The notes under the pieces are model-generated. The model had not been told where the DNA came from. It saw nothing but the letters and a program-made list of their open reading frames with translations, and did not search any database. Positions 2,934 through 55,240 of a stretch of 64,000 bases of DNA are shown piece by piece (position 1 is the first letter of the stretch; the number at the start of each line of letters is the position of its first letter). Both the position numbers and the translations under genes were made by a program. Location of the stretch: assembly GCA_964354655.1 (NCBI GenBank), contig CAYHAL010000002.1, positions 5,680-69,679 of the forward strand, written 5' to 3'. The stretch is from an uncultured Dehalococcoidales bacterium (lineage in GTDB: Bacteria > Chloroflexota > Dehalococcoidia > Dehalococcoidales > E44-bin46).

Positions 2934-4871
2934 ATGAGAATGGGTTGGAGTCGTAATCTCATAATATTTATCGCTATTGCCATTGCCTGTATAGCCCTTT
3001 TTGCTTATTTCACACCGGCAACCAAGAAGCCCGAGGAAATCCCTCTAGCTAAAGCTATAACCATGTCACAAAATGGTGAAATAGCGCAGATTAAAGATGA
3101 AGGCGATACCCTGCTTATTACTACGACCGATGGCACGGAAATGAAGACAATCAAAGGTAATCTTACCTTGCTTGACCTCACCGACCTTGGGTTTGTCCTT
3201 CCTGAAGGGGGCTATGAAATAAAGCCGTCGGGCGGGCTTGACTGGAGCCTGGTGCTAAACTTCCTGCCGCTTATAGTCTTTGGCGGTCTGCTGTTCTTCC
3301 TGTTCCGCAGGGCTCAAGGGGCTAATACCCAAGCGATGAATTTTGGCCGCAGCCGAGCTCGTTTGTTCCCAGCCCACACCCCAACGGTAACCTTTGATGA
3401 CGTCGCCGGGGTAGAGGAAGCTAAGCAAGAAGTCCAGGAAGTAGTAGAGTTCCTCAGGGCACGGGAGAAGTTTCAGCGACTAGGCGCCCGTATCCCAAAG
3501 GGGTTGCTGCTAATAGGTCCGCCAGGCACGGGAAAGACGTTACTAGCTCGGGCAATAGCCGGGGAAGCTGGGGTACCTTTCTTCTCGATTAGCGGTAGCG
3601 AATTCGTAGAGATGTTTGTTGGCGTTGGTGCCTCTAGGGTACGAGACCTCTTTGACCAAGCCAAACGCAATGCCCCATGCATTGTCTTCATTGATGAGAT
3701 TGATGCTGTAGGTCGTCACCGTGGTGCCGGGCTCGGTGGTGGTCATGATGAGAGAGAACAAACCCTTAATCAGATCTTGACTGAGATGGACGGCTTTGAC
3801 ACCAATACCAACGTGATTGTCCTTGCCGCTACCAACCGCCCTGATATACTCGACCCGGCTTTACTCCGCCCCGGGCGCTTCGACCGCCGGGTAGTCCTAG
3901 ACCGACCAGACATCAACGGTCGGGTAGCCATCCTTAAAGTCCATACTAACGGTAAGCCACTGGCTCAATCGGTTAATCTGGAGGTTCTAGCTAGACAGAC
4001 AGCCGGCTTTAGTGGTGCTGACCTAGCCAATCTGGTCAATGAGGCAGCTATTCTGGCTGCCAGGCGGGGCGGGCAGACTATTGATATGCAGGAGTTTGAG
4101 GAATCCATAGACCGGGTGATTGCCGGCCCGGAGAGGAAGAGCCGGCGGATAAGCCCTAAAGAAAAGGAAATCACCGCCTATCACGAGGCTGGACATGCCC
4201 TCGTCGCCAAAATGCTGCCTAACGCTGACCCGGTGCATAAAATCTCAATCGTGGCTCGGGGAATATCCCTCGGTCATACTCGGCAACTACCCACTGAAGA
4301 CCGATATCTGATGACGCGCTCTCAATTTAATGATATGTTAGCCACCTTCCTAGCCGGTCATACCGCTGAGAAGCTAATCTTCAATGAATCAACAACCGGG
4401 GCTTACGATGATATTGAGCGGGCAACCACCATGGCCCGCAGGATGGTGACTGAGTACGGAATGAGTGATAAACTAGGACCACGAACCTTCGGGCATAGGG
4501 AAGAACTAATCTTCCTCGGTCGTGAAATCACTGAGCAGAGGAACTATAGCGAGAAGATAGCCCAGGAGATTGATGAGGAAGTCCATAATATCATCCAGCA
4601 CGCTTCCGAGGTAGCCGAAAAGATTCTAACTGAAAACAAGCCAAAATTAATCCATGTCGCTGAAACACTTATTGCTCGCGAGACCCTGGAGGGTGAAGAA
4701 CTAGACTCATTACTTGCCCAGTCGGTACCAGCACCTCAGCCTAAAGCCACAATAACACCCACCCCAGCGCCAGCAGAGACCACCACCAAAACTAAGCCCA
4801 TGCCCAAGGAGACACCAATCGTCCCTCAACCCCTCCCCAAACAAGCCCCGGCTACGCCGGAGATAGCATGA
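2934..4871 (+). CDS. ftsH: ATP-dependent zinc metalloprotease FtsH
   Basis: 645 aa. Has an N-terminal TM segment, Walker A GPPGTGKT, Walker B IVFIDEID, the SRH region, the HEAGHA zinc motif and a Pro-rich tail. Confidence 0.95.
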
Positions 4872-5275
4872 TAGAAATTACCCAAAAGCCTATCTCCCCT
4901 GAGCTTATGGTTAATAAAGTCAAGACCGATAGCAGTGGTTGTGTGGTCGCTTACATCGGGCTGATTCGCCAATATTCCCATGGTAAACAGACCCTTTCCG
5001 TAGAATATAGCGATACCGAGGGCAAGGCAGAAAAAAGGCTCCAGGAAATAGCCAGTGAAGCTAGGCAAAAATGGCAACTGAATAATATAGCTATATGCCA
5101 TAGAATAGGCAGACTAAAAGTAGGGGATATTAATATCGTTATTGCTGTCGCTGCTGCCCATCGAGAGGAGGGCTTTGCCGCCTGTCAGTATGTTATTGAC
5201 CGGTTCAAGCAAACATTACCTACCCAGAAAAAGGAAACCTCCCAAGACGGTAGCATCTGCGTCGAGGGTGAATAG
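4868..5275 (+). CDS. moaE: Molybdopterin synthase catalytic subunit MoaE-like protein
   Basis: 135 aa. The pattern GCVVAYIGLIR...ICHRIGRLKVGDINIVIAVAAAHREEGFAACQYVIDRFK matches the MoaE family. Its start overlaps the ftsH stop (ATGA). Confidence 0.7.
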   Translation: MIEITQKPISPELMVNKVKTDSSGCVVAYIGLIRQYSHGKQTLSVEYSDTEGKAEKRLQEIASEARQKWQLNNIAICHRIGRLKVGDINIVIAVAAAHREEGFAACQYVIDRFKQTLPTQKKETSQDGSICVEGE

Positions 5276-11191: not shown

Positions 11192-11515
11192 AGGTTGTAT
11201 TAACCTCACCCCCTTTAGATTTTTATTGGTAACCCTATCCCCTTTGTCCCCTTCCCCTTGATAAGGGGAAGGGGAATCAATTGTATAAGGGAGGCTTCGC
11301 CTCTCTTTGACTCTCCGTAATTATGAATATATATTCCTATCAAGGGGGAAGAGACTTTAGAGAGAAGCCTTGCCTCTTTTTGACTCTCCCAGCTTCAAGA
11401 AGTGTTAGCTCTCCCACCCCCAATAACCGGGTGTTTAAGAGGGGCAAAGCCCCTCTCTTACCTACACTCCCCCTTCCCTTATTAAGGGAAGGGGGACAGG
11501 GGGATAGGTTGCTAA
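11192..11515. repeat. Mosaic hairpin repeat element, copy B (forward orientation)
   Basis: Left end is AACCTCACCCCCTTTAGAT followed by hairpin CCCCTTCCCCTTGATAAGGGGAAGGGG. Three internal GAGGC/GCCTC-type hairpin units follow. Right end is CCCCCTTCCCTTATTAAGGGAAGGGGGACAGGGGGATAGGTTGCTAAA. Confidence 0.9.
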
Positions 11516-20381: not shown

Positions 20382-20771
20382 TTACTGCATGACAAAACTC
20401 GTGGTCATATCGTTCACCTTGACTATATAAGTCTCGCCTGAAGTAAAATCGCTACCCAAGTTCACATTTTGCTCAAAGAAGCCATAAACCTGAGTACAGA
20501 TTGCCCCCTTTGGTCGTTGTGTAGCTACCTCAATATAAATGGTATTGCCTCTGCGCTCCGTAGTCAGTTGGCGAAAAGTAGTGCAACCATCGCTAAGACC
20601 CCCCTTGATATAGACGAAGACCTGCGGCGGATACGATTCAGCTATGTTTACCTTAACCTCGTGAATAGGCGCCAGACGAATTTCCAGCCCCTCAACCCTA
20701 ACACACGAACCCACTAGAAGACCTAATAGGCACAAAACTACAACCCCAAAATATAACTTAGCTTTAAGCAT
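20382..20771 (-). CDS. Hypothetical lipoprotein (129 aa)
   Basis: Signal peptide with LVGSC lipobox. Beta-rich mature part. No family recognised. Confidence 0.5.
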   Translation of the reverse strand: MLKAKLYFGVVVLCLLGLLVGSCVRVEGLEIRLAPIHEVKVNIAESYPPQVFVYIKGGLSDGCTTFRQLTTERRGNTIYIEVATQRPKGAICTQVYGFFEQNVNLGSDFTSGETYIVKVNDMTTSFVMQ

Positions 20772-20896
20772 CTCTTACTCCAGACAAACCTTCCCTGATT
20801 GCTACCCTAATACTATAACGAAAAGAAGACCAACTGGTTAGTGGATTATCAGGCAAATGCCATAGCACTATGATTTGCCTATTACTTCAAAGTCAA

Positions 20897-21130
20897 TTAT
20901 TTGCGTATGAAGTGCAAGATGGCATTAATGGTGAGGGTCAACCCTACACTCAGTAACAGAGTGGTAACGATGGGGAAGTAAAAAGAAACACCGCCCTTCT
21001 TAATGAGAATGTCGCCAGGCAGTTTGCCGATAAAAGGGACGTGCCCCCCAAAGATTAAGAACAACCCAGCCCCGATTAAAACAGCGCCTACGATAAGCAG
21101 TATTTTCCCGAACCCATCAAAACCTAGCAT
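20897..21130 (-). CDS. DUF2905 family small membrane protein
   Basis: 77 aa. GKLPGDILIKKGGVSFYFPIVT is the DUF2905 signature. Confidence 0.75.
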   Translation of the reverse strand: MLGFDGFGKILLIVGAVLIGAGLFLIFGGHVPFIGKLPGDILIKKGGVSFYFPIVTTLLLSVGLTLTINAILHFIRK

Positions 21131-21181
21131 AGCTAAATATTAACCCCATGGTTAGACAAATAAAGACCAAAAATTTATGTA

Positions 21182-21643
21182 TTACTTCTTTTTCCCCTGA
21201 ATATCGGGATAGGCTACTTTAAACCCCCATGACTGTACCTTTTTATCAGCCTGCTGCTCAATGAACCAACCCTCAAGAGCACTAGGCGCATGGAGCAAGG
21301 CGTGGGCAAATTCATGGGCAACAATCGACTCAACCCGCCTTTGACTAAAACGTTCGATTGCCGGGGATAGGTAGACCAAAACTCGCTGTTGGTTCTCTGC
21401 GTGTTGGCTGGTAGAGGCAGACACTCGGCAAGAAAATACCTGGCCAACGATTCCCGGAGCCGGAGCGAGGATGATTGATACCTTGTCTTTCAGGAATTTT
21501 AGCTCATCGGCAGACATCTTCTCCATGACTCGCTGTATGGCCTTCAGCGTTTTGGGTCTTCCCGCCGAGGCAAAAAAGCCAGTCTCAACAAAATTGTGAC
21601 TATTGTTTTCCATTCCATTTTGTGTAAGCAACCCTCTCCTCAC
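21182..21643 (-). CDS. Hypothetical protein with HExxH metallopeptidase-like motif
   Basis: 153 aa (start uncertain: GTG at 21643 or ATG at 21613). Contains AHEFAHALLH. Confidence 0.45.
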   Translation of the reverse strand: MRRGLLTQNGMENNSHNFVETGFFASAGRPKTLKAIQRVMEKMSADELKFLKDKVSIILAPAPGIVGQVFSCRVSASTSQHAENQQRVLVYLSPAIERFSQRRVESIVAHEFAHALLHAPSALEGWFIEQQADKKVQSWGFKVAYPDIQGKKK

Positions 21644-21701
21644 CCTGAATTGTAAAACTGACTTAACTAAGTGTCAAACACCTCGCCTCTCACGGCTTAT
21701 A

Positions 21702-21961
21702 GGTGAGATTATCTACCTCACCCCCTTAGATATTTATTAACCCACCCCCTTTATCCCCCTCCCTTATAAAGGGAGGGGGAAGAATTTGAAAGAGGGACTT
21801 CGTCCCTCTTTAACGCCCTATAGGATAGAGGCTTCGCCTCTCTTTGACTCTCCTTAAGAAGAGAGGGGAAGAGATTTTAAGAGAGGGGCTTCGCCCCTCT
21901 CTTACCCCCACTCCCCCTTCCCTTATTAAGGGAAGGGGGTCAGGGGGATAGGTTGCTAAAC
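21702..21961. repeat. Mosaic hairpin repeat element, copy C (forward orientation)
   Basis: Left end is TTATCTACCTCACCCCCTTAGATATTTATTAACCCACCCCCTTTATCCCCCTCCCTTATAAAGGGAGGGGG. Three internal hairpin units include AGAGGGAC-TTC-GTCCCTCT. Right end is CCCCCTTCCCTTATTAAGGGAAGGGGGTCAGGGGGATAGGTTGCTAAA. Confidence 0.9.
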
Positions 21962-22035
21962 AACCTCTTATAGGGTTTTATTTGCATTTGGTGGAAAACC
22001 AGTTGCAGCCCATTTTTTCAAAAGAGGAGGTAATT

Positions 22036-22254
22036 ATGTTTACTTTACTTCAAACATTGATAGTGTTATTGATTTGTAGCTCATGCTTAAATGGTTTTCT
22101 ATTCTACAGGAGAAAAATATTCCGTAAAAAGCTGGCGCAATTTGCTTTGGACATTACTAGAGCGAGAGCTACTTTACCTATCCAAGCTTATGACCACTGG
22201 TTATCTGAGAAAGTAAAAGAACTATGGACTGGAGACATCTTTGCGTCTGTCTGA
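22036..22254 (+). CDS. Small membrane protein (72 aa), hypothetical
   Basis: ATG at 22036 follows AAAGAGGAGG by 6 nt. The hydrophobic N-terminus MFTLLQTLIVLLICSSCLNGFLFY is followed by the basic stretch RRKIFRKK. Confidence 0.4.
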   Translation: MFTLLQTLIVLLICSSCLNGFLFYRRKIFRKKLAQFALDITRARATLPIQAYDHWLSEKVKELWTGDIFASV

Positions 22255-22420
22255 TTTCTATTTCTAGACTACATAATACCTTATATTCATCAGAGCCAGG
22301 CCCAAAATGCATTTTGGGAAATTCCAGACCTAGGATATCAGGGCACATGTTAGTGATATGTCCAAATTGTGAGCAAATTTTCAAAGCTGGGCAGGGTGTC
22401 GGCTTAGATATGTTTTCCAT
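22178..22420 (-). CDS. Small hypothetical ORF (80 aa), convergent with and overlapping the 72-aa ORF
   Basis: AAGGAG lies 7 nt upstream of the ATG. It overlaps the 3' 77 nt of the plus-strand ORF. It contains a perfect 18-bp palindrome (22300-22317), which argues against coding. Confidence 0.25.
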   Translation of the reverse strand: MENISKPTPCPALKICSQFGHITNMCPDILGLEFPKMHFGPGSDEYKVLCSLEIEIRQTQRCLQSIVLLLSQITSGHKLG

Positions 22421-22511
22421 ATTATTCTCCTTGCATCAATTTAAGGTTAAGTATAGGAGGTGTTGATAAAGGTGTCAACCAAATGCAAACAGAACCTCTT
22501 ATAGCTACGAC

Positions 22512-22539
22512 TTGACAAAGATGGCTCAGCCATTAAAAT
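22512..22539 (+). promoter_or_regulatory. Candidate promoter with palindromic operator upstream of the VOC gene
   Basis: TTGACA (22512-22517), 16-nt spacer, TAAAAT (22534-22539). The spacer holds the perfect palindrome ATGGCTcAGCCAT (22521-22533). Confidence 0.45.
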
Positions 22540-22579
22540 TGTGGCATCACCGACTTAAACAAAAAGGAGGACACAAAAC

Positions 22580-23569
22580 ATGGCACAGGTAAGTCCCGCC
22601 AAAATTAAGGCTAAAAGTATAACTCAGGTAGCTATTGCTGTTCGTGACGTGCCGAAGGTGGCTGAGAACTACTGGAATATCTTAGGCATTGGCCCGTGGG
22701 AGATTTATGACTGGGAGTATCCTTTAGTCCGTGACCGCCAATACTATGGTAAACCGGCTTTGGCCAGAGAAAGGATAGGCTTTGCTCAGGTAGGTGCGAC
22801 GCAGCTGGAGTTAATCCAACCTGTTGATGGGCCGTCCATCTATGGAGATTTTCTGGAGGAGCACGGAGAGGGAATCCACCACCTACAATTCAAAGTTGAA
22901 GACGTGGATGGGGTTGCCGAAATGCTGGCTAAACAAGGTTTCCCCGACATGCAGAGCGGACATTCCGGAGATACCGGAGCCTACCATTACATTGATTTTA
23001 AGCCCCTCCATACTATCTGGGAACTGGCTCGTGAGCCTAAAAAGAAGGTGGGTAAAGTTAGTCGCTATCCAGAATCAGCGGCGACCAGCCCAGCCAAGAT
23101 TAGGATCAAAAATATAGACCAGGTAGCTATCGTGGTTCGTGACGTGCCGAAGGTGGCTGAGAACCACTGGAATATCTTAGGCATTGGCCCATGGGAGATT
23201 TATGAAGTGAAACCACCAACGCTTTATGACCGAGCCTACCGGGGTAAAGCCGGTAACTTCACCTATTGGCTTGCCTTGACCATGGTAGGACCAGTACAAC
23301 TAGAGCTGGCTCAACCTATATCCGGGGGCAATGTCTATAGCGATTTTATGGCTGAACACGGCGAAGGACTCCACCACATTGCCTTCACCGTGGATGATAT
23401 TAACCAGACTACAAAGATAATGAACCAGGAAGGCTTCCCCACTCTGATGGGCGGGGGGTTCTCTGACGGTAGCTTCGCCTATTATGATACACGCCGACCG
23501 TTGAAGATTATCTTGGAAGCGTTTCAGGTGCCCAAGGCTATGCCACCATCTGCCACTCGCTATCCCTGA
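22580..23569 (+). CDS. Tandem VOC (glyoxalase/bleomycin-resistance/dioxygenase) domain protein
   Basis: 329 aa made of two homologous halves of about 165 aa. Each half carries H..E metal-ligand contexts (EEHGEGIHHLQF and AEHGEGLHHIAF). Confidence 0.8.
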   Translation: MAQVSPAKIKAKSITQVAIAVRDVPKVAENYWNILGIGPWEIYDWEYPLVRDRQYYGKPALARERIGFAQVGATQLELIQPVDGPSIYGDFLEEHGEGIHHLQFKVEDVDGVAEMLAKQGFPDMQSGHSGDTGAYHYIDFKPLHTIWELAREPKKKVGKVSRYPESAATSPAKIRIKNIDQVAIVVRDVPKVAENHWNILGIGPWEIYEVKPPTLYDRAYRGKAGNFTYWLALTMVGPVQLELAQPISGGNVYSDFMAEHGEGLHHIAFTVDDINQTTKIMNQEGFPTLMGGGFSDGSFAYYDTRRPLKIILEAFQVPKAMPPSATRYP

Positions 23570-23622
23570 ATTGGATGGTTATACACCAGACTTCGTGAGT
23601 CTATTTATTATATTTATTAGTT

Positions 23623-24564
23623 ATGTTAAAATTATATAAAACCGAGGCAGATGTGGTGAAACAGGACGTTGACAGTTTTCTAACCTATCTAACTGTAGAA
23701 AAGGGCTTCTCCGAAAATACAATCGCTGCCTATCGCAATGACCTCTATCAGTTAGCCAATTTTGTTGAGGAAGAAGCTGCCAAGGGTGGTGCTCCTGCTT
23801 CTTGGGCTAACTTCAACCGGCAAGGGATGCTAAGCTACCTGCTTAATCTTAAAGAGAGAAACTATGCGGCGACCACAGTAGCCCGTAAAATAGCGGCTGC
23901 TAGGTCATTCTTTGGCTTCATGGTGGCTGAAGGCAACATAAAAGACAACCCTTCACAGAATGTTGACTCGCCTAAAGTGGGGAGGGCACTGCCTAAACCT
24001 ATCTCAATTAGCCAGGTTCGCCGCTTGCTGGAACAGCCAACTAAGTTATCCACCCCAGAAGCCAAAAGAGATAAGGCAATGCTGGAATTATTATATGCCA
24101 GTGGCATGAGGGTAAGCGAGTTGGTATCTTTGAACCTAGGTGATATAGACCTAGACGGTGGCTTTGTCCGCTGCTTTGGTAAAGGGCATAAGGAGCGGCT
24201 TATCCCCATCTACCGACAAGCCGCTTTGGCAGTAGAAGAATATATCAAAGAAGCTCGCCCTCAACTGACCCGTAATGATGCTGAGCGGGCTTTGTTTCTT
24301 AATCGGCGTGGCGAGAGACTGACCAGGCAGGGACTTTGGCAAATACTAAAGGGTTATGCTAAAGCAGCCGAGCTAGATACAGAGGTTACCCCCCATACCC
24401 TGAGACATAGCTTTGCTACTCATATGCTGAGTGGTGGGGCTGACTTGAGGTCGGTCCAGGAATTATTGGGGCACGCTAACATCTCTACCACGCAAGTTTA
24501 TACCCACCTTACTACTGAACATATTCGTCGCACCTATGAGAAATCACACCCCAGGGCTAAGTAA
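23623..24564 (+). CDS. xerD: Tyrosine site-specific recombinase, XerD-like
   Basis: 313 aa. N-terminal SAM-like domain (EKGFSENTIAAYRNDL). Catalytic residues sit in ASGMRVSEL, HTLRHSFATHML and LLGHANISTTQVYTHL. Confidence 0.75.
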   Translation: MLKLYKTEADVVKQDVDSFLTYLTVEKGFSENTIAAYRNDLYQLANFVEEEAAKGGAPASWANFNRQGMLSYLLNLKERNYAATTVARKIAAARSFFGFMVAEGNIKDNPSQNVDSPKVGRALPKPISISQVRRLLEQPTKLSTPEAKRDKAMLELLYASGMRVSELVSLNLGDIDLDGGFVRCFGKGHKERLIPIYRQAALAVEEYIKEARPQLTRNDAERALFLNRRGERLTRQGLWQILKGYAKAAELDTEVTPHTLRHSFATHMLSGGADLRSVQELLGHANISTTQVYTHLTTEHIRRTYEKSHPRAK

Positions 24565-39315: not shown

Positions 39316-39512
39316 GAAAGTCAAAGAGAGGCTAAGCCTTTCTTATATAACTAGTTTCCCCTCTCCTTACTCAAAATAGTAGTCAAGGGGAGTTTAAGAG
39401 GGGCTTCGCCCCTCTAAATAAATTTTCTCCCCCTTCCCCTTATCAAGGGGAAGGGGAAAAAGGGGATAGGGTTTTCTAAACAAGAACTACAGGGGGTGAG
39501 GTTGATAAATAA
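39316..39512. repeat. Mosaic hairpin repeat element, copy D (short, rearranged)
   Basis: It opens with an inverted internal unit (GTCAAAGAGAGGCTAAGCCTTTCTTATATAAC). Then come AGAGGGGCTTCGCCCCTCT and hairpin CCCCCTTCCCCTTATCAAGGGGAAGGGG plus AAAAAGGGGATAGGG. It ends with GGGGGTGAGGTTGATAAATAA, which contains the nadC start codon. Confidence 0.85.
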
Positions 39513-41827: not shown

Positions 41828-42604
41828 TTAAATCAAAATGGCTTCTTTTCGCCTCTCCCTTACTACCGAGATAGGCATATCATATAACTGGCTGAGGTTA
41901 TCATCGGTAAGCGCTTGCTTAGGAGAACCCTCACCCCAGATAAGCCCCTGTTTCATCAGCACCAGTCGATCACAGGCGAGCGGTAGACAGCTTAGGTCGT
42001 GGGTCACAAATAGGGTAGTCAGACACCGTGAATCGTGAATCAGCTTTACCAGCCTTATGATATCCGTTTTCGCCCTCCAGTCCAACGAAGCGGTTGGCTC
42101 ATCAAGCAAGAATAACTCCGGCTCCTGAGCCAGACAGCGGGCTATGGCTACCCGCTGTTGCTCACCCCCCGACAGGTGCCCAATAGGTCGCCGGGCGAGA
42201 TGGGTCATACCCACCAGCTCTATCATCTCGTCCACGATTTTCCAGTCGTGCTTGCCCGGTCTCCGAAGCAAGCCCAAAAGCCCGTAGCGCCCGAGCATCA
42301 CTACCTCACGAACACCCATTGGCATCCTCGGGTCTATGTTCTCCACCTGAGGGACATAACCAACCTTCTTTCTCAGAAAATGACCGCTACCCGGGGTGAG
42401 GAGGTGCCCCAGCACCTCTACCCGCCCATGGACTAGTTTGCCCAGTCCATTAATTATGGTGAGGAGTGTGGTCTTCCCGGCTCCATTGGGACCAACTATA
42501 CCAACAAACTCCCCCGACTTTACCCTAAGCGATACCCCCCGAAGGGCAACATCTTCCCGATAAGAAACCACAGCGTTCTCAATATTTATTATGGTATTGC
42601 TCAT
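41828..42604 (-). CDS. Metal ABC transporter ATP-binding protein (ZnuC/TroB-like)
   Basis: 258 aa. Walker A is GPNGAGKTT, the signature is LSGGEQQR and Walker B is LFLLDEP. Confidence 0.9.
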   Translation of the reverse strand: MSNTIINIENAVVSYREDVALRGVSLRVKSGEFVGIVGPNGAGKTTLLTIINGLGKLVHGRVEVLGHLLTPGSGHFLRKKVGYVPQVENIDPRMPMGVREVVMLGRYGLLGLLRRPGKHDWKIVDEMIELVGMTHLARRPIGHLSGGEQQRVAIARCLAQEPELFLLDEPTASLDWRAKTDIIRLVKLIHDSRCLTTLFVTHDLSCLPLACDRLVLMKQGLIWGEGSPKQALTDDNLSQLYDMPISVVRERRKEAILI

Positions 42605-49790: not shown

Positions 49791-50039
49791 GTTTAGAAAC
49801 CTATCCCCCTGCCCCCTTCCCTTATTAAGGGAAGGGGGGAATTGAGGTAAGAGAGGGGCTTCGCCCCTCTAAAACTCCTTTTAAGAGTTAAAAAAGAGGC
49901 AAGGCTCCTCTCAAACTCCTTTTAAGGAGAGTCAAAGAGAGGCTTCGCCTCTCTTATATAACCAATTTCCCCCTCCCTTATGAAGGGAGGGGGATAAAGG
50001 GGGTGGGTTAATAAATATCTAAAGGGGTGAGGTTGATAA
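49791..50039. repeat. Mosaic hairpin repeat element, copy F (complete, reverse orientation)
   Basis: This is the reverse complement of the A/B/C layout. It starts with GTTTAGAAACCTATCCCCCTGCCCCCTTCCCTTATTAAGGGAAGGGGGG. Three internal units follow. It ends with CCCCCTCCCTTATGAAGGGAGGGGGATAAAGGGGGTGGGTTAATAAATATCTAAAGGGGTGAGGTTGATAA. Confidence 0.9.
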
Positions 50040-54926: not shown

Positions 54927-55240
54927 TTGACCTCACCCCCTTTAGATATTTATTAACCCACCCCCTTTATCCCCCTCCCTTATGAAGGGAGGCTTCGCCT
55001 CTCTTTGACTCTCCTTAAAAGGAGCTTGAGAGGAGCTTCGCTCCCTTTGACCCTCCTTAAAAGGAGCCTTGCCTTTTTTACTCTTCTTAAAAGGAGTTAT
55101 TAAGCAGAACTTTTAAGAAATCATCCCTCTCAAGGGAGAGGTTTTAGAGAGGGGGCTTAAGCCCCCTCTTTTTAAAATCCCTCCCCTTCCCCTTGGCAAG
55201 GGGAAGGGGATAAAGGGGATAGGGTTACCAGATAATCTCC
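54927..55240. repeat. Mosaic hairpin repeat element, copy G (forward orientation, left hairpin truncated)
   Basis: Left end is TTGACCTCACCCCCTTTAGATATTTATTAACCCACCCCCTTTATCCCCCTCCCTTATGAAGGGAGG, fused directly to the first unit. There are about four internal units, including AGAGAGGGGGCTTAAGCCCCCTCT. Right end is CCCTTCCCCTTGGCAAGGGGAAGGGGATAAAGGGGATAGGGTTACCAGA. Confidence 0.9.

Follow-up and report, generated by a model that had tools for sequence, protein, structure and literature searches.

The locus raises two linked questions: what is the AT-rich segment of about 0.5 kb that stands just upstream of a VOC/glyoxalase-family gene, and what do the small open reading frames (ORFs) inside it represent? 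A first-pass annotation of the window (the whole 64-kb stretch of DNA that was analysed) had described inverted ends, flanking direct repeats and two convergent, overlapping ORFs, and had read the segment as a non-autonomous mobile element with a type I toxin-antitoxin cargo. Our comparison with related genomes confirms that the segment is a genuine, recent insertion, so that the earlier observation holds with small corrections; the proposed cargo fared less well. We identify the stretch 21974-22496, with a probability of roughly 0.88, as a derivative, without transposase, of the IS6-family insertion sequences of the Dehalococcoidia/Chloroflexota type, presumably mobilised in trans. The coordinates of its features are collected in Table 1.

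Table 1. Features of the inserted element and its immediate flanks (window coordinates).
Feature	Position	Strand	Basis
Target-site duplication, left copy, TCTTATAG	21966..21973		single copy in empty sites and 8-bp family rule (PMC7986276)
Left terminal inverted repeat, GGTTTTATTTGCATTTGGTGGA	21974..21995	+	sequence comparison
Ribosome-binding site of P72, GAGGAGG, 5 nt before ATG	22024..22030	+	sequence
72-aa ORF (P72): N-terminal hydrophobic helix, RRKIFRKK, second helix; orphan	22036..22254	+	translation, AlphaFold2
80-aa ORF (M80), orphan	22178..22420	-	translation
Third ORF (ORF3), 80 aa	22224..22466	+	almost exactly antisense to M80
Perfect 18-bp palindrome, CCCAAAATGCATTTTGGG	22301..22318		each half like core of terminal repeat
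Ribosome-binding site of M80, AAGGAG, 6 nt upstream of start	22427-22432	-	sequence
Predicted sigma-70-like promoter, inward from right repeat: TTGACA, 17-nt spacer, TATACT (11/12)	22450..22478	-	consensus match only
Right terminal inverted repeat, GGTTCTGTTTGCATTTGGTTGA (read inward)	22475..22496	-	22/22 identity to family tips
Target-site duplication, right copy, TCTTATAG	22497..22504		filled vs empty sites
Resident promoter of the VOC/glyoxalase-family gene: TTGACA 22512-22517, 16-nt spacer, TAAAAT 22534-22539	22512..22539	+	kept in all related loci

The insertion is proven because related contigs hold empty sites, the comparison that the first-pass annotation had proposed. Three related lineages (93.5-96.4% DNA identity) carry a single copy of AACCTCTTATAG without the insert, and all of them read CTAAACAACCTCTTATAGCTACGG at this point: L005/L006, which are 96.4% identical to the window over the VOC gene plus xerC, L007-L009 (93.9%) and L010 (93.5%). 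Filled sites identical to the window are found in four Logan contigs (L001-L004). L011, the strain nearest to the window (99.7%), parts from it at position 22510, going leftwards, and the L011 contig stops 107 nt beyond that point. Comparison of filled with empty sites gives an inserted element of 523 bp, which arrived after the lineage had split from its 96.4%-identical relatives. The two copies of the 12-nt direct repeat AACCTCTTATAG, at 21962-21973 and 22493-22504, agree exactly and are the sole such pair in the window; further copies at one mismatch or less were not found within the 64 kb. It had been taken as a whole for the target-site duplication. A duplication is indeed present, but its length is 8 bp and not 12, since the other four letters of the 12-nt repeat, AACC, form the right tip of the element itself. 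These 4 nt common to target and tip would coincide by chance in about 1 in 256 cases.

The same sites could also be read in the opposite direction, as the loss from the relatives of an ancestral segment by precise deletion between the direct repeats. Recombination between the 12-nt repeats could excise the segment cleanly, and a nearby 153-aa gene, missing in L005/L006, shows a presence/absence difference flanked by microhomology. We nevertheless regard this reading as very improbable: the three lineages are all empty, the filled lineage is nested among them, and in its ends, duplication length and base composition the segment matches a family of transposable elements.

The interior is AT-rich, as had been noted, with 37.3% GC compared with 48.8% in the window and 50.2% in the VOC gene, and full-length copies of the same type of element are similarly low (37.7-44.3%). 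The earlier placement of the insertion, between a repeat array and the VOC promoter, is likewise correct. The left copy of the duplication adjoins a GC-rich hairpin repeat array (approximately 21700-21960), while 7 nt separate the end of the right copy (22504) from the -35 box downstream of it, and the resident promoter is intact. An Rfam scan of 20500-24000 gave no match in the element and only sub-threshold, microRNA-like matches on the GC-rich hairpins.

The terminal inverted repeats had been reported as 20 nt with 17 matches. They are real but longer, with arms of 22 nt that are complementary at 19 of 22 positions, and the right arm enters the direct repeat by 4 nt. The right repeat is identical over 22/22 nt to tips in 26 loci, the full-length copy L056 among them, and its first 9 nt are the consensus GGTTCTGTTGCAAA of IS6/IS26 terminal inverted repeats (PMC6807381). 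The left repeat differs by 1 nt from a variant, GGTTTTATTTGCATTTGGTTGA, that occurs in 16 loci, and agrees at 20/22 positions with its left-end counterparts in the full-length copies L101 and L102. A scan of 185,579 species genomes for the pattern GGTTNTNTTTGCATTTGGTNGA returned 81 stretches against approximately 4 expected by chance, as estimated from the 19 specified bases. Chloroflexota or Dehalococcoidia account for 59/80 among the stretches listed, often with several per genome. Tips in the family always start with GG, and with GGTT in the full-length copies and scanned ends; GGTT is the tip because the flanks outside it are unrelated between copies. Further copies of the ends, for which the first-pass annotation had proposed a search, are numerous in related genomes, but the 64-kb window itself contains none at five mismatches or fewer.

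The identity of these ends also bears on the possibility of site-specific integration. A small circle carrying AACCTCTTATAG could have been integrated by a tyrosine recombinase, for example the product of the XerC/D-like gene at 23623-24564, with the 12-nt repeats as attL/attR cores. The exactness of the direct repeat and the presence of a gene with a Phage_integrase domain 1.1 kb downstream agree with this. However, the recombinase gene is syntenic in all relatives with empty sites. The inverted repeats at the ends are also identical to those that bound DDE-transposase elements elsewhere, whose insertion sites and 8-bp duplications are unrelated to one another, and the canonical tip in the IS6-type family here is AACC. 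Such an origin is highly unlikely.

The IS6 derivation is borne out by four full-length relatives, all of which bear these ends: L073 (1676 bp, duplication CCGGGGCT), L101 (2378 bp, duplication GTGATTTT), L056 (1554 bp, duplication matching at 7/8 positions) and L102 (2051 bp, no clean 8-bp duplication in its flanks). The transposase of L073 scores 128.6 bits with the NCBIfam model NF033587 'IS6 family transposase' (cut-off 125), and that of L056 scores 120.2 bits, slightly under the cut-off; the Pfam domain DDE_Tnp_IS240 (PF13610) is found in both (E 2.8e-21 in L073 and 7e-21 in L056). Members of the IS6 family make 8-bp duplications (PMC7986276). Homologues of the transposases of the full-length copies are named IS6 family transposase by NCBI, and the transposases carry an N-terminal zinc-binding domain. 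Many miniature elements of 86-270 bp are bounded by the same tips, with perfect 8-bp duplications in L037, L091, L063, L031 and L014. Our element has the composition of an IS6-derived non-autonomous element: IS6-type repeats, an 8-bp duplication, no transposase of its own and a cognate full-length copy that encodes an IS6 DDE transposase. As mobile DNA it is commonplace, and its parent type, with zinc-finger-bearing IS6 transposases, is abundant in Dehalococcoidia/Chloroflexota. ISDsp3 of Dehalococcoides is presumably a catalogued relative of this parent type. The earlier reading as a non-autonomous mobile element with terminal inverted repeats is thus upheld by the empty sites in relatives and by the many end copies in related genomes.

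A transposase core was not found in the element by tblastn or with a profile of 122 family transposases in six frames (profile E about 1), and the 64-kb window contains neither a transposase of this kind nor a full-length partner. Nucleotide alignment to other copies extends over the terminal 30-45 nt only. The interior had no match among the 81 genome loci and JGI metagenome contigs, and a metagenome scan with the left-end core plus the palindrome core gave 8 matches, 0 of them related to the element. All five contigs that carry P72 represent one locus, so only one site is known for the 523-bp element. Several copies of the same element are the usual mark of a miniature inverted-repeat element (MITE); here it is the ends that are multicopy across the class. 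Movement of the exact 523-bp unit has been seen once, because a single copy is known and its interior is matchless elsewhere.

IS6-family elements move by replicative cointegrate formation, which is resolved by homologous recombination. The element would be incapable of moving by itself, and the transposase of a full-length copy would act on it in trans via the common 22-bp ends. Homologous recombination of its two copies in a replicative cointegrate would then leave a simple insertion with an 8-bp duplication. An internal deletion in a full-length copy is the most likely origin of the element. From this parent it would have kept the left end, including the first gene's start signals, together with approximately 170 nt of the right end, and this right end would include the last 46 codons of the transposase in heavily diverged form.

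These codons belong to ORF3, a third ORF that was overlooked in the first reading. The final 46 codons of this ORF (22326-22463) are probably what remains of the C-terminus of the transposase. ORF3 resembles residues 297-327 of the L073 transposase (tblastn E 0.003), both proteins have 46 residues from RPRIS to the stop, and the distance from the stop to the right tip is 30 nt in ORF3 and 27 nt in L073. End-anchored identity of the tail is 14/46 with L073 and 12/46 with P0097, compared with a maximum of 13 in 2000 shuffles in a post hoc test, and blastp with composition correction gives an E value of only 0.059. A likeness of ORF3 to YnfU-like zinc ribbons (E 0.01) was far under the cut-off and was rejected. 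The idea that the interior is a decayed whole transposase was also rejected, given the profile result; the similarity of the C-terminal tail alone survived.

The palindrome sits 8 nt upstream of the tail relic. It had been reported correctly as perfect, but one base too far to the left. Only three other perfect palindromes of at least 14 nt occur in the 64-kb window, and the palindrome-region sequence TGCATTTTGGGAAATTCCAG matches the left-end sequence TGCATTTGGTGGAAAACCAG at 15/20 positions. The four full-length copies examined contain no comparable internal site.

The two ORFs first described are present as reported, each with its Shine-Dalgarno sequence, and they overlap by 77 nt; P72 has the hydrophobic helix and basic stretch that had been attributed to it. 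In our best explanation, P72, M80 and ORF3 are either remnants or passengers peculiar to this lineage. A possible though doubtful variant is that the element is a mobile insertion cassette, in which the same IS6-type ends and 8-bp duplication enclose P72, perhaps also M80, as a functional cargo gene spread by the element. Passenger genes are common in the full-length relatives and several are predicted to be membrane-anchored: passengers p179 and pa101, which share 37% identity, each have a hydrophobic helix at the C-terminus, the 157-aa passenger of L056 has N-terminal hydrophobic helices, and in L035 a 72-aa ORF encodes a hydrophobic stretch with a basic tail behind it. Counted from the left tip, P72 is the first ORF and begins 62 nt inward, after a strong ribosome-binding site; in L056, L058, L073 and L101 the first gene begins 50-107 nt inward of the tip. 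Stop codons are depleted, since at least three ATG-initiated ORFs of at least 72 aa in 523 bp were obtained in 0/5000 shuffles. The AlphaFold2 single-sequence model of P72 has two confident helices (pLDDT 82), although helix predictions are cheap for hydrophobic peptides; the model of M80 has a pLDDT of 65 and an N-terminal half that is mostly unstructured.

Against a functional cargo, P72 is an orphan. It matched only itself in 5.8 billion clusters, and an exhaustive HMMER search of 1.84 billion representatives added a single match, P0011, which is a 2435-aa tandem-repeat translation and was discarded as spurious. M80 also matched only itself. P72 lacks an upstream consensus promoter within the element, and its GC content is flat across codon positions. 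The GC and codon-usage statistics that the first-pass annotation had proposed were of use for GC, which is low; codon-usage scoring is uninformative, because all three ORFs score approximately 0 compared with 0.19 +/- 0.07 for real genes, P72 falling between genes and wrong frames; the codon usage of the ORFs thus differs from that of the host. We rejected P72 as a truncated passenger of the p179/pa101/pa102 kind, because the patchy likeness visible by eye was non-significant in Smith-Waterman comparison against shuffles (p 0.07, 0.79 and 0.53). Of the three ORFs, P72 is nevertheless the likeliest to encode a real small membrane-anchored protein. MIC231 of Bacillus cereus is a mobile insertion cassette derived from IS231, of the IS4 family, with passengers of recognisable functions. 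Our element resembles such cassettes in having insertion-sequence terminal repeats around non-transposase ORFs, a target duplication and presumed mobilisation in trans, but it belongs to the IS6 and not the IS4 family, and its ORFs are putative passengers.

The predicted promoter in the right end bears on how the ORFs may be transcribed. The innermost bases of the right terminal repeat form its -35 box, and from there it would drive M80 as well as an antisense transcript to the P72 3' end. With so strong a predicted sigma-70-like promoter in this repeat, convergent transcription is plausible, and a transcript that meets that of P72 is probable. The first-pass annotation had suggested that the minus-strand ORF may in fact be the antisense RNA; M80 does not look like a bare RNA of this kind, since it has a strong predicted promoter of its own and a ribosome-binding site. 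A terminator on the minus strand was not found inside the element. Hybrid promoters at the junction of element end and flank are known for IS26. At the right end and flank here, the plus strand has no such promoter besides the resident one.

This layout underlies the suggested type I toxin-antitoxin module, in which P72 would damage the membrane and an antisense RNA from the M80 region would pair with at least 77 nt of the 3' end of its mRNA and block it, thereby stabilising the element. Convergent pairs overlapping at their 3' ends are the layout of txpA/RatA and bsrG/SR4 of Bacillus subtilis, and P72 is similar to these pairs in that a small peptide, whose hydrophobic helix precedes a basic stretch, is met by a predicted convergent transcript over its 3' end. 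Type I toxins are, however, typically shorter than P72 with its 72 aa and 48-residue soluble tail, and the supposed antitoxin has a good ribosome-binding site and an ORF of 80 codons. P72, M80 and ORF3 gave nothing above noise against Pfam, NCBIfam, PADLOC, PHROGs and PDB; with Rfam included, there is no likeness to any toxin or antitoxin family, defence system, solved structure or structured RNA. Folding of RNA and DNA on both strands is no more stable than that of shuffles (z +1.1 and -0.6), the pair is conserved nowhere in the homologue searches, and M80 lies opposite the probable transposase relic. Unlike txpA/RatA and bsrG/SR4, the putative pair shows neither a sequence or structure-model match nor conservation nor terminators. 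The layout is compatible with such a module, but it fits equally well an insertion sequence in decay whose right end carries a promoter that reads inward. None of our analyses supports the toxin-antitoxin reading, which we consider improbable. A combination of the two ideas, an IS6-derived cassette with a self-stabilising pair, in which the P72 mRNA would be countered by the right-repeat transcript and the palindrome would serve as a binding site for a transposase or regulator, appears slightly less probable still.

The transposase-less IS6 derivative that we favour has close parallels. Its terminal repeat starts with GGTTCTGTT, as does the consensus GGTTCTGTTGCAAA, and its 8-bp duplication is that of the IS6/IS26 family (PMC6807381, PMC7986276), in which ISDsp3 from Dehalococcoides sp. 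BAV1 and the zinc-finger-bearing 'long' bacterial members are the closest parallels. It differs from IS6/IS26-type insertion sequences in having no transposase; the full-length relatives, as does ISDsp3, carry passenger genes. The IS6-family MITEs MITEBth2 and MITEHarch3, of 227 and 336 bp, are catalogued in ISfinder (PMC7986276, PMC6807381), and a review of the whole family lists no more than two MITEs (PMC7986276). They share with our element the IS6-type ends, the non-autonomous state and presumed mobilisation in trans; our element comes from another phylum and retains what is probably a remnant of the 3' end of the transposase gene. A full-text literature search found no paper describing MITEs in Dehalococcoidia.

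Our study accounts for a strain-specific difference of 0.5 kb next to a conserved VOC promoter, and indicates that the two genes annotated there as 'hypothetical protein' are probably insertion-sequence debris or passengers. The known working of such elements is unchanged by these findings. Elements of this kind break metagenome assemblies, and they may be markers of recent rearrangement in organisms involved in organohalide respiration or subsurface carbon cycling. IS6-type ends are highly multiplied in Dehalococcoidia/Chloroflexota, mostly as the miniature elements. According to Harmer and Hall, long bacterial IS6 members seldom begin with GG, whereas the Chloroflexota elements here do.

The AT-rich segment of about 0.5 kb upstream of the VOC gene is a polymorphic insertion with IS6-type ends and an 8-bp duplication, and it carries no transposase. 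Clustering at 90% identity or above groups the VOC/glyoxalase-family protein with proteins from other metagenome contigs, and the insertion site was compared among the contigs carrying these proteins, with DNA identity measured over the VOC gene and the following xerC gene. Four Logan contigs (L001-L004) have the filled site and match the window exactly throughout the element, and L001 is 100% identical over the two genes. The site is empty in L005/L006 (96.4% identity), L007-L009 (93.9%) and L010 (93.5%), which read ...GCTAAACAACCTCTTATAGCTACGGCTTGACAAAG... with a single repeat copy and without the 0.5-kb segment. Because the lineage with the insert falls among those lacking it, the segment was gained, as the first-pass annotation had proposed. 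The contig of the closest strain, L011 (99.7%), diverges from the window from 22510 leftwards and ends 107 nt further. These 107 nt (L011:1-107, against window 22403-22510) are unrelated and GC-richer and directly precede the VOC promoter's -35 box; either this spot was rearranged or received an insertion on another occasion, or the assembly is chimeric. A 153-aa gene with an HExxH motif and a weak SprT-like match (E 0.0016) is absent from L005/L006 (L005:3540-3560), where the junction coincides with a short CTTCTTT(T) repeat, suggesting that the gene was gained or lost via microhomology.

The exact direct repeat noticed earlier occurs in exactly two copies, and the interior is AT-richer as described (37.3% GC against 48.8% for the window). 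The inverted repeats just inside are also real, but their arms are longer than first reported and match at 19/22 positions. Flanks beyond GGTT vary between Chloroflexota copies, so GGTT is the tip and the element spans 21974-22496, ending in ...AACC. The target duplication is then the 8-bp TCTTATAG, and the extra AACC left of its left copy is target sequence. When the consensus of both ends, GGTTNTNTTTGCATTTGGTNGA, was scanned against one genome for each of 185,579 species, 81 stretches were found, compared with about 4 expected by chance (our own estimate from 19 specified bases, 596 Gb and both strands). Further copies of the ends thus exist, mostly in Chloroflexota or Dehalococcoidia (59/80 among the matches listed), with up to six per genome. 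Twelve gammaproteobacterial matches (L017, L018, L040, L062, L065, L066, L072, L077-L080 and L089) are unrelated and sit in a conserved 1.2-1.5-kb gene region; they read GGTTAT(T/C)TTTGCATTTGGTGGA, and in front of this the sequence ..ACA(C/T)AC(C/T)AA(T/C)GC is conserved.

Four full-length copies confirm the reading of the tip and of the 8-bp duplication. Their transposases match Pfam DDE_Tnp_IS240 and have an N-terminal zinc-binding domain, and the NCBIfam model 'IS6 family transposase' scored 128.6 bits for L073 and 120.2 bits for L056 (cut-off 125). The 2638 related protein clusters (E <=1e-10) include several that bear the name IS6 family transposase, from Chloroflexota or Dehalococcoidales. 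IS6 elements make 8-bp duplications and have the consensus end GGTTCTGTTGCAAA, and their catalogued members include ISDsp3 of Dehalococcoides BAV1, which carries a passenger gene (PMC7986276, PMC6807381). The element resembles this family in both target duplication and ends. L101 and L102 have the left end GGTTTTATTTGCATTTGGTG.., which matches that of the element at 20/22 positions, and the left end of L073 is of the GGTTCTAT type. The segment is therefore a new, single-copy, ORF-bearing, transposase-less IS6-family member in a Dehalococcoidia-like Chloroflexota genome; genomes of this kind share 70-77% nucleotide identity with the host in common genes. The element would have been moved by the transposase of a full-length copy, through a replicative cointegrate that is then resolved when the duplicated copies undergo homologous recombination, as established for IS6/IS26 (PMC7986276).

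Features of the element, its surroundings and its full-length relatives
Feature	Position	Strand	Remark
Direct repeat AACCTCTTATAG	21962-21973, 22493-22504		
Left terminal inverted repeat GGTTTTATTTGCATTTGGTGGA	21974-21995		arm 1
Right terminal inverted repeat GGTTCTGTTTGCATTTGGTTGA	22475-22496		arm 2, read inward
P72	22036-22254	+	72 aa, good ribosome-binding site
M80	22178-22420	-	80 aa, good ribosome-binding site
ORF3	22224-22466	+	80 aa, almost exactly opposite M80
Perfect palindrome	22301-22318		
153-aa gene	21182-21643	-	
VOC gene	22580-23569		
Hairpin array, upstream of insertion	21700-21960		GC-rich
Further hairpin arrays, near	11200-11480, 16548, 35025, 39400-39500, 41929-42393, 49820-50030, 54930-54980		
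L073, Dehalococcoides sp. JdFR-56	locus 3458-5133	-	1676 bp, duplication CCGGGGCT
L101, Chloroflexota MAG, GCA_042582865.1	L101:1400-3777		2378 bp, duplication GTGATTTT
L056, Chloroflexota MAG ('uncultured Chloroflexia')			1554 bp, duplication 7/8 match
L102, ENA metagenome contig	L102:523-2573		2051 bp, flanks without clean duplication

No transposase core was detectable in the interior. ORF3 and the L073 transposase are collinear at their C-termini: each has 46 residues from a shared RPRIS to the stop, and the distance from the stop to the right tip is 30 nt for ORF3 and 27 nt for L073. End-anchored identity was 14/46 to L073 and 12/46 to the next most similar tail, P0097, with a maximum of 13 in 2000 shuffles over 122 tails and six offsets. 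This test was designed after the match had been seen, and for that reason the support for a putative origin by internal deletion of a full-length copy is rated as moderate. The most similar tails (L073, P0097 from L101 and P0018 from L102) belong to copies in which a passenger gene precedes the transposase; P72 is likewise the first ORF inward of the left end, and its similarity to these passengers is not significant. The palindrome is perfect as reported, but lies one base from the position first assigned to it. It resembles the left end in its core and subterminal portion (15/20 positions) and is found at the likely deletion junction, 8 nt before the putative relic of the transposase tail. 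A counterpart was not found in the four full-length copies, and the palindrome may be a pseudo-end or a binding site.

Passenger ORFs vary among the full-length IS6-family copies (L073, L101, L102, L056, L035 and L058), and those tested had no Pfam match. p179 and pa101 (37% identity) represent a conserved family of 160-179 aa with a hydrophobic helix at the C-terminus; L102 carries a 202-aa protein, L056 a 157-aa protein with N-terminal hydrophobic helices, and L058 an 84-aa Cys-rich ORF. L035 has two convergent small hydrophobic ORFs adjoining its right end, one of them of 72 aa with a basic tail.

P72 and M80, the two ORFs seen by the first-pass annotation, exist with their 77-nt overlap, and public gene callers called both on four metagenome contigs. 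Three ATG-ORFs of at least 72 codons in 523 AT-rich bases occurred in 0/5000 shuffles, and hence the DNA is under constraint against stop codons, or was so until recently. Nothing else decides which frames are real: a host codon model scored each of the three at about 0, compared with 0.19 +/- 0.07 for real genes and -0.40 +/- 0.23 for wrong frames. AlphaFold2 without an alignment predicted two helices for P72 (pLDDT 82) and a mostly unstructured M80 (pLDDT 65). A minus-strand sigma-70-like promoter match (TTGACA, 17-nt spacer, TATACT, 11/12) starts with a -35 box on the inner margin of the right repeat and is suitably placed for M80, so that a transcript converging on P72 and crossing its 3' end is plausible; no such promoter was found upstream of P72. 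The mobile-element half of the original proposal stands, but the type I toxin-antitoxin half is without support and is a conjecture that we consider very improbable. Searches found no relatives of P72 or M80 and no family, defence-system or solved-structure match for the ORFs, and the element showed no excess folding on either strand, no Rfam match and no minus-strand terminator. The VOC promoter is intact 7 nt downstream of the insertion, and no hybrid promoter was found there. The inward promoter of the element faces divergent minus-strand genes, with a GC-rich hairpin array between.

Only 4 of the scanned loci have a full or near-full-length transposase adjoining the tip, and in L024 the transposase is reduced to a short remnant. 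The remaining Chloroflexota loci (L013-L091) form a large population of IS6-derived miniature elements of 86-270 bp. By sequence they fall into three or more clusters, and a single MAG has up to six end matches. Their ends are asymmetric, with GGTTCTGTTTGCATTTGGTTGA at one and the more diverged GGTACTATTCGGTTTTGGTTGN at the other, and five have perfect 8-bp duplications. The element shares only the terminal 30-45 nt with any of them. For the IS6 family as a whole, the catalogue contains just two MITEs (PMC7986276, PMC6807381), and a full-text literature search yielded no publication on MITEs in Dehalococcoidia.

The GC-rich hairpin arrays consist of modules such as CCTCACCCCC..., CCCCCTCCCTTATAAAGGGAGGGGG and AGAGGGGCTTCGCCCCTCT. 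Module content upstream of the insertion varies between related strains (L005, L007 and L010), and metagenome assemblies break there, L001-L004 beginning at window 21934-21938. An 81-aa 'gene' called wholly over this array upstream of VOC (L007:3713-3958, minus strand, also in L008 and L009) is probably spurious. A similar module lies inside IS6-type miniature elements of other Dehalococcoidia (L084, L054, L039, L070 and L020), and in one MITE subfamily of about 247-269 bp it forms the entire interior. The modules either insert into or beside such elements or are spread by them.
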